64,000 nucleotides of DNA from Fuerstiella sp. (lineage in GTDB: Bacteria > Planctomycetota > Planctomycetia > Planctomycetales > Planctomycetaceae), in contig JAQWLN010000100.1 of NCBI GenBank assembly GCA_029247265.1, positions 5,122 to 69,121 on the forward strand, written 5' to 3'. The notes under the pieces are model-generated. The model was given only the letters and a program-made list of their open reading frames with translations, was not told the DNA's origin and ran no database searches. The first letter of the stretch is position 1, and the number at the start of each line of letters is the position of its first letter. The position numbers and the translations under genes are program-made. Below, piece by piece: positions 52,660 to 53,640 of this stretch.

Positions 52660-53640
52660 TTAGAAGTCAATGATGAATCGGGTGCCCATGAGCTCGTAGT
52701 CACCTGAGACGACGGGGGTCATGGCGTTTGTCAGCGTGGTGCGGCGATCATCGATCCGGCCGAAGATGTAGTTGAACTGCAGTCGCGTATTGGCATTCCA
52801 GTACCAGTTCAATGCCAGCGCCAGACTCTCACCAACTCCGCCACGTACGTCGTGGTCACTGAAGTCTGCTTGCGAAAACCGCACCGCCACCTGCCACGCG
52901 CCCCACCCTCTGCCTCGACCTCCATCGCATGTGTCCAGACTGAAGAAATTCTCAAAAGGCCTGACGCGCCCCATGATTCCGATTTTGCGATTCCAGGGAA
53001 TGTGCTCCCCGGTCAGAAAGTACGAAAGGGAAACGTAGCCACCGTGAAACGAGAGGTCGCTGCCGAATCCGTGGTCACGCTGCATCCAGATCTTCATCCA
53101 TTCGCCCGTCAGCTGAAATGCCCCGACATTAATGACCGTTTCAAGGGCACACAGTTGATAAGATTCGGCACCGTCAATCTGCCCCGTGTCGAGCCAGTTA
53201 GACTCGGTTATTGCTTCGGGTTGTGTACGAAACTGAGACTGGTTGTACGGCTCTCTTCCGTCCGGAAACGCCAGCGTTCCAGCCAATGCGAAATGTGCAT
53301 ATCCTCGACCATTCGACAATTCGTCGTACCATGCTGTATTCGCGATGCGCCCGGCGAACTCTGTTTGAGGCTCGTCCCCCACGATGTCATTGGTATCCTG
53401 AATTGGCACCATGTTGAACACGCCCGCCTGCCAGTTCCATGCAAGATCGGGCGTGCCGCCGTAGGATGCTAGGCCAAGTCGCCGATTTTCACGATTTATT
53501 GCATCGACAACGAGAGGTCGCTCCAGAAATGTCATAAAGTTGCTGCTGTCAAGATGATCCAGACCGTACGGACGCTTCTGGTTATCCAGCCAGCCGTGAT
53601 CGGCATGCCCTCGATCTTCTGATTTACGTATGCGGATCAT
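52660..53640 (-). pseudogene. Chimera: pirin N-terminus (19 aa) fused in frame to the C-terminal part of an OprO/OprP-type porin
   Basis: [19 protein letters not shown] is a pirin/YhhW-type start. [14 protein letters not shown]...FLERP, GGYVSLSYFLTGEH, WGAWQVAVRFS, LALNWYWN and terminal F are Porin_O_P-type. No signal peptide. Confidence 0.85.

Follow-up and report, generated by a model that had tools for sequence, protein, structure and literature searches.

Is an open reading frame that begins as one protein and continues as another a gene, the remnant of two genes or an artefact of assembly? The question is raised by a frame of 326 codons in the stretch of 64,000 nt of Fuerstiella sp. DNA analysed here (the window). 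The encoded protein opens with the N terminus of a YhhW-type pirin (residues 1–19) and continues with the C-terminal part of a planctomycete porin of the OprO/OprP family (residues 20–326). The frame lies at 52660..53640 on the minus strand, starting with an ATG at 53640 and ending with a stop codon at 52660–52662, and its sequence is exactly that quoted in the initial annotation. There it had been ascribed to a deletion, with three possible outcomes: the birth of a new gene, a dead relic or an assembly chimera. The last of these falls, because contigs of seven runs cross the joint; the birth of a gene has no positive evidence; and the relic is the best supported. The fused frame is very probably a recent pseudogene made by deletion, in which stop codons have yet to accumulate. 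The features of the locus are itemized in Table 1.

Composition of the fused reading frame

Comparison of the frame with Pfam gives a match to Porin_O_P only (residues 21–314, E = 6.4e-28, 98.5 bits against a gathering cut-off of 20.9). The match spans positions 88–358 of the 370 in the profile; because it begins at position 88 the porin part is truncated at its N terminus, with the N-terminal quarter of the domain absent. For the Pirin domain there is no Pfam match in the 326-aa sequence even at E ≤ 10, so that of the two families for which the initial annotation had proposed a profile scan only the porin is recognized. A scan of the same sequence against NCBIfam gave no match. The protein is present in the protein collection (NCBI, nr and Logan) as P0121, where it clusters with P0001.

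Table 1. Features of the pirin–porin locus in window coordinates, and blocks of blastn similarity with the sister contig L085
Feature	Window position	Strand	Basis
Retained 5′ region of the pirin gene	53641..53942	-	blastn with L085 1436-1782 (71%) and with L087 3-2225 against 55806-53594 (78%); three-way alignment
Pirin codons 1-19	53584..53640	-	17 of 19 residues shared with the complete pirin of L085/L094/L095/L096
Deletion joint, GCTGGA/TAAC	53581..53590	-	side-by-side sequences; ends of blastn matches
Porin codons (residues 257-563 of intact orthologue)	52663..53583	-	Porin_O_P profile; identity to P0001; strand map of P0002
Divergent PSCyt1/PSCyt2/PSD1 gene, conserved left flank	54214..56736	+	collinear with L085 1-1241 (80.5%); Pfam labels of orthologue
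GFO_IDH_MocA oxidoreductase gene, conserved right flank	50987..52288	-	L085 11768-13348 against window 52466-50896 (88%); gene tables
blastn block, L085 1-1241	55242-54002		80.5%
blastn block, L085 1436-1782	53942-53585		71%
blastn block, L085 10763-11770	53590-52594		91%
blastn block, L085 11768-21260	52466-42875		84-88%

The pirin portion is short, but it is accompanied by the region in which the gene begins. The complete pirin of the sister genomes has 232 aa and matches Pirin (6.9e-37) and Pirin_C_2 (5.9e-29), and the window keeps its start together with the context of the ATG and the DNA upstream. The homology extends ~300 bp upstream of the ATG into the 5′ region of the pirin, as seen both by blastn and in a three-way alignment; this is the promoter side of the gene, which it has in common with the divergent PSCyt/PSD1 gene. 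The assignment of the first 19 residues to a pirin N terminus, made originally from a motif, is thus borne out by the orthologous protein, by the upstream DNA and by the same divergent neighbour. The purine-rich ribosome binding site noted with it is AGGGAAG at 53656–53650, located 10–16 nt before the ATG and conserved in the relatives. A tblastn search with the pirin of L085 matches the window at 53640–53581 only. The Escherichia coli YhhW protein, used as an approximate query, gives a weak match (E = 3e-5) that is driven by the first 19 residues.

Set against the family of YhhW-type pirins and quercetinases (PF02678 Pirin plus PF17954 Pirin_C_2), the start codon, the ribosome-binding region, the upstream DNA and codons 1–19 are orthologous, whereas the cupin barrel is absent. 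The Pirin domain comprises residues 9–119 of the intact orthologue, so that residues 1–19 include only ~11 of the 108 positions of the profile. The region of the metal-binding His and Glu residues (...GFGTHPHSDMEI...THSE... in the intact orthologue) lies wholly within the deleted part, and the 19-residue segment contributes nothing to the metal site of the cupin. A scan for sigma-70 promoters and terminators between 52300 and 54300 found nothing above chance. The terminator scan flagged a palindrome, GATCGAGGGCATGCCGATC, at 53598–53616, which lies inside pirin codons 9–15.

The remainder of the frame is a porin. A search of the protein collection returned more than 1,200 relatives, nearly all from planctomycetes, 500–565 aa in length and labelled OprO/OprP porin. 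They cover ~95% of the query, that is all but its first 17–19 residues, and intact members align only from N20 (NQKRPYGL) onward. The alternative that intact porins naturally begin with the sequence found here does not therefore hold. In the closest relative, P0001 (517 aa, 95% amino acid identity), residue 257 (NQKRPYGL...) corresponds to residue 20 of the window protein, and upstream of the joint P0001 has no similarity to the window in either protein or DNA. In an alignment of 55 sequences G258, K261, R262, P263, S271, S272, F277, E279 and R280 are invariant, and the motif G-NQKRP-GL..L.SS...F.ERP, by which the porin was originally recognized, is indeed an internal and nearly invariant block. 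The terminal phenylalanine that had also been remarked upon is present in the fused frame, which ends ...GTRFIIDF; F565 is conserved in at least 90% of the 55 sequences. An alignment of the homologue P0002 can be extended upstream, to 53844, as a possible further porin remnant. This was rejected, as the extension runs across a stop codon at an identity close to random, and the underlying DNA is orthologous to that upstream of the pirin.

The deletion and its joint

The undeleted arrangement is found between the same flanks in four independent assemblies of the sister lineage, all metagenome-assembled genomes named ‘Fuerstiella sp.’ or ‘Fuerstia sp.’ (L085, GCA_029935955.1; L094, GCA_029936035.1; L095, GCA_012959735.1; and L096, JGI 3300001683). 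The order of the genes in these contigs is PSCyt1/PSCyt2/PSD1 (−), the 232-aa pirin (+), Flavodoxin_2/FMN_red (+), a SASA-domain protein (+), a cNMP-binding protein (−), Usp (−), a response regulator (−), fragments of OprB and sulfatase genes, a membrane protein of 256 aa (+), a complete-length porin (+), GFO_IDH_MocA (+) and a sulfatase (−). In all four the pirin and porin are co-oriented and near to each other, as a fusion by deletion would lead one to expect, ~7.6 kb apart with ~8 genes between them. The window shares the PSCyt/PSD1 gene on one side, and the GFO_IDH_MocA and sulfatase genes on the other; the GFO_IDH_MocA gene is downstream of the porin in all the relatives. Since the relatives carry both pirin and porin as complete proteins belonging to large families, the separate genes are ancestral and the fused state is derived. 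Distant relatives of the porin (69–73% identity; L002–L004) are uninformative, having no neighbouring genes in common with the locus and no pirin nearby. A scan of species-representative genomes with the PSCyt/PSD1 protein found only relatives of ≤66% identity, and the N-terminal motif of the pirin is absent from the 84 loci examined for it.

What is missing from the window relative to the sisters is a single block, which runs from codon 20 of the pirin to codon 256 of the porin and measures 8,764–8,984 bp depending on the assembly. The initial annotation had proposed the loss of most of the pirin, the genes between, and the signal peptide and first strands of the porin, and the four sister contigs carry just this missing interval. 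At the joint the sequence is GCTGGACACC in the pirin parent, GCTGGTAACC in the porin parent and GCTGGATAACC in the window. In a longer view these are ...CACGGATGGCTGGAC/ACCTAT for the pirin parent, ...GTCCGCGCTGGT/AACCAGAAG for the porin parent and ...CACGGCTGGCTGGATAACCAGAAG for the window, which follows the pirin through GCTGGA and then the porin from TAACCAG. By blastn against L085 the pirin-side match stops at 53585 and the porin-side match begins at 53590. The exact microhomology is 0–2 nt, contained within an imperfect match of 8 nt (GCTGGAYA versus GCTGG-TA).

A single deletion of ~8.8–9.0 kb in the lineage of the window has brought codon 19 of the pirin up against codon 257 of the porin. 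Lost in it were pirin codons 20–232, the ~8 intervening genes (those of the flavodoxin-like reductase, the SASA-domain, cNMP-binding and Usp proteins, the response regulator, the sulfatase and OprB fragments and the 256-aa membrane protein) and porin codons 1–256. The footprint at the joint is that usual for illegitimate recombination or replication slippage, and the deletion probably took one of these routes at the short imperfect microhomology. The joint is in frame by chance, with a prior of one in three, leaving a frame of 326 codons that is opened by the start signals of the pirin.

Could the joint be a product of assembly or binning, present in no cell? The window comes from a metagenome-type assembly, and a 5% sample of one raw-read run (X21) held no reads of the organism; the support for the joint is at the level of contigs. 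At that level contigs with no mismatches cross 53584–53590 in seven runs from six studies (X1, X2, X3, X4, X5, X6 and X11), with no loose contig ends at these positions in any of the seven. These are Logan contigs, assembled separately for each run, from marine, invertebrate-associated and estuary metagenomes of 2020–2025. Contigs of the window population are identical over 2 kb in the seven runs, the fused allele is the only form seen in them, and on two contigs from two runs the protein of 326 aa is called in exactly this form. Both flanks are moreover collinear with the sister genomes, and the parental sequences have only 5 nt in common at the joint, because of which a k = 31 graph could not misjoin them. 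An origin by assembly is therefore virtually impossible, and is excluded for practical purposes at the level of contigs.

A different reading takes the joint as real, and the segment of ~9 kb with the rest of the pirin and the 5′ part of the porin as moved elsewhere in the genome. The 64 kb inspected are only part of a genome, and the gene content of the segment differs between L085 and L087, so this region is plastic. Yet the window contains no second pirin and no other porin N-terminal sequence, no ends of mobile elements are found at the joint, and a simple deletion explains everything in one event. Relocation is accordingly very improbable, and would in any case leave both genes broken.

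Deletional bias and microhomology-mediated deletion generate fusion pseudogenes and chimeric open reading frames in bacterial genomes. The locus resembles such deletion-derived fusions in that co-oriented genes have been joined by loss of DNA with minimal homology, the parents are intact in close relatives, and neighbouring lineages bear other lesions in the same genes. Nothing essential differs; what stands out is that the joint is in frame, that the upstream start signals are kept and that the marine population in which the fusion is fixed has been sampled widely.

Consequences for the encoded protein

The missing parts of the porin can be placed on a structural model, the one given by AlphaFold2 for P0002, an intact homologue (pLDDT 80.9), onto which the fused protein was mapped. 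The best matches of the model in the PDB are OprP (2O4V; E = 5.7e-17, TM = 0.73) and OprO (4RJW). A direct sequence search also aligns the porin family to OprO, with the break falling near OprO residue 123, although the sequence identity of the family to OprP and OprO is only ~18%. OprP-type outer-membrane proteins are encoded by Planctomycetes (PMC3422733).

Starting at the N terminus, the P0002 model has a hydrophobic helix at residues 2–30 (the signal peptide), a disordered linker (32–106) and two long helices (108–151) that form a coiled coil. These are followed by 16 long β strands. The break is located at N259, at the end of strand 5 (253–261), so strands 1–4 and most of strand 5 are absent from the fused frame and 11 of the 16 remain. 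The retained portion comprises the last 2–3 residues of strand 5, the region of the constriction loop, strands 6–16 and the C-terminal phenylalanine. A hydrophobic leader, such as MRPRHNTILVRFICGATVACTFCLPVRAQ, is found at the start of intact relatives. Inspected by eye and set beside these, the fused frame has no signal peptide, the start being charged with no hydrophobic stretch.

As a member of the OprP/OprO porins (PF07396; Pseudomonas aeruginosa OprP 2O4V and OprO 4RJW, with a planctomycete subfamily carrying an N-terminal extension), the protein is thus incomplete. Residues 20–326 match Porin_O_P and the C-terminal ...RFIIDF is conserved, but in contrast to the subfamily there is no signal peptide, no linker and coiled-coil region of ~170 aa and no strands 1–5, and in their place are 19 foreign residues. 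Phosphate selectivity in OprP/OprO is due to an arginine ladder and a lysine cluster, and part of the ladder would lie in the deleted strands. The porin part is a fragment by descent from the OprO/OprP family, not a working member of it.

Export to the outer membrane proceeds through Sec, with insertion by BAM, and a leaderless fragment of a barrel has no known route there. Because the leader and five of the 16 strands are absent, the product would stay in the cytoplasm and could not close a barrel. The model thus argues strongly that the fused protein is unable to cross the inner membrane or to act as a porin.

These losses also weigh against the proposal of a functional new gene, in which the promoter of the pirin would drive the fused frame and selection would maintain it for some task that is not that of a classical porin. 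All 326 codons are open, the native start signals are conserved, and the fused allele is the sole form in the seven marine metagenome runs. Such a gene would however have to act without the signal peptide and the missing strands, and with only 19 residues of pirin that hold no metal ligand and give no Pfam Pirin match. The contigs are identical over 2 kb, and fixation may simply reflect a young clone. The proposal is very unlikely. The pseudogene reading is itself not free of tension, as the start context of the pirin is intact and the frame may, on its sequence, be transcribed and translated.

Selection, timing and decay in neighbouring lineages

The retained 307 codons of the porin were compared in three taxa, with the intact orthologue of L087 (P0128, 563 aa) as outgroup. 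The window differs from L085 with dS 0.23 and ω 0.107, and from L087 with dS 0.55 and ω 0.093; L085 and L087 differ from each other with dS 0.54 and ω 0.094. On the branch leading to the window there are 19 synonymous and 7 non-synonymous changes, giving ω ~0.11. The value is 0.10 on the L085 branch and 0.12 on that of L087. None of the 307 codons is affected by a stop codon or frameshift. The comparison of dN/dS with intact orthologues, suggested at the outset as a means of judging the fragment, therefore fits a relic only if the deletion is recent; no relaxation of constraint is visible on the window branch, and this and the open frame are points that speak against a dead gene.

The same low ω is an argument for a selected gene, but it is equally explained by a recent deletion. 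It is moreover weak evidence of function, because the sister branch is equally low (0.10) although most of its alleles are frameshifted. The low ω thus points to a recent deletion or, with less likelihood, to a constraint that persists on the fragment. On the assumption that the fragment has evolved neutrally from the deletion onward, that event would fall within at most about the last 15–20% of the window branch (dS at most about 0.015). The identity of the population over 2 kb is in keeping with a young clone in which the event is recent. That the in-frame fusion is transcribed and translated from the start signals of the pirin, and has been kept by selection since the deletion, would seem on sequence grounds to be decidedly unlikely; if true it would be a very young chimeric gene, within dS ~0.09 of its intact parents.

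The pseudogene reading finds support in the state of both genes in related genomes. In the sister lineage an 11-bp tandem duplication (ATTGAACTGGT twice) shifts the frame of the porin, so that the last 46 residues are dropped, including the terminal phenylalanine. The duplication is present in five contigs (L085, at ~11540–11562, L086, L095, L096 and L001). In L094 the insertion of a single A near codon 130 (at ~10045; CAGAATG becomes CAGAAATG) splits the porin into frames of 132 and 447 aa, and one protein, P0134, bears both lesions. No intact porin occurs among the fully observed sister alleles. In the outgroup lineage (L087–L091) the porin is intact and it is the pirin that is truncated, independently of the window. 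There it reads MIRIRKSDDRGHVDHG and then passes into unrelated sequence (L087 2179–2384; also L089 and L090). A segment of ~907 bp of pirin in L085 (1776–2682) is replaced in L087 by 157 bp that contain three GGCCCCTTCCA repeats and a hairpin, CCACCGGTTCTGCCGGTGG. The genes between pirin and porin also differ between the L087 lineage and L085.

The lesions in these neighbours mark the interval from PSCyt/PSD1 to GFO_IDH_MocA as a plastic zone rich in pseudogenes. The segment that is deleted in the window holds gene fragments in the sisters (L085 7590–8240, L095 7338–7742 and L096 7412–7730), comprising a sulfatase piece of 209–216 aa and an OprB piece of 106–134 aa; decay of the interval had therefore set in before the deletion took place. 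On sequence, the pirin and this porin paralogue appear to be dispensable in the clade, which supports the reading of the window frame as a relic.

The two independent truncations of the pirin, in L087 and in the window, end only 8–9 nt apart, beside the palindrome (GATCG..GCATGC..CGATC) and a GCTGG motif. It may be speculated that the palindrome, which is just upstream of both breaks, might favour slippage. That pirin codons 16–20 are a recurrent hot spot for deletion is a smaller possibility than that of a selected chimeric gene.

The event is of an ordinary and well-known kind, and opens no new biological question. It is chiefly of use for annotation: the 326-aa protein, deposited in public databases, clusters with porins but ought to carry the label of a pirin/porin fusion pseudogene, and the loss of ~9 kb is worth noting in the lineage of the window. 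It also illustrates neatly, at the resolution of single bases, how a deletion can place an open chimeric frame behind the start signal of another gene. With both parents preserved in the sisters, and the same two genes decayed independently nearby, the locus could lend itself to a brief case study of how marine Planctomycetaceae lose genes.

Two further features flank the fused frame. Just downstream, at 52466–52593, is a MITE-like element of 128 bp with perfect 15-bp terminal inverted repeats (GAAGTGGTTTCAATA). The sister contigs lack the element at the orthologous site. In the same metagenomes its left ~40 bp occur in many copies, with a depth of 21–31 versus 6–8, and many contigs diverge at its ends. 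Upstream, between the PSCyt/PSD1 gene and the start of the pirin, are conserved inverted-repeat blocks (GGGACCATTGTCCC and CGGGACGGGAC..TGGTCCCATCC; ~54020–54065 on the minus strand, aligned with L085 and L087). The blocks are near-invariant in the three lineages, in a region where the overall identity is 71–78%, and may be an operator or an RNA element.
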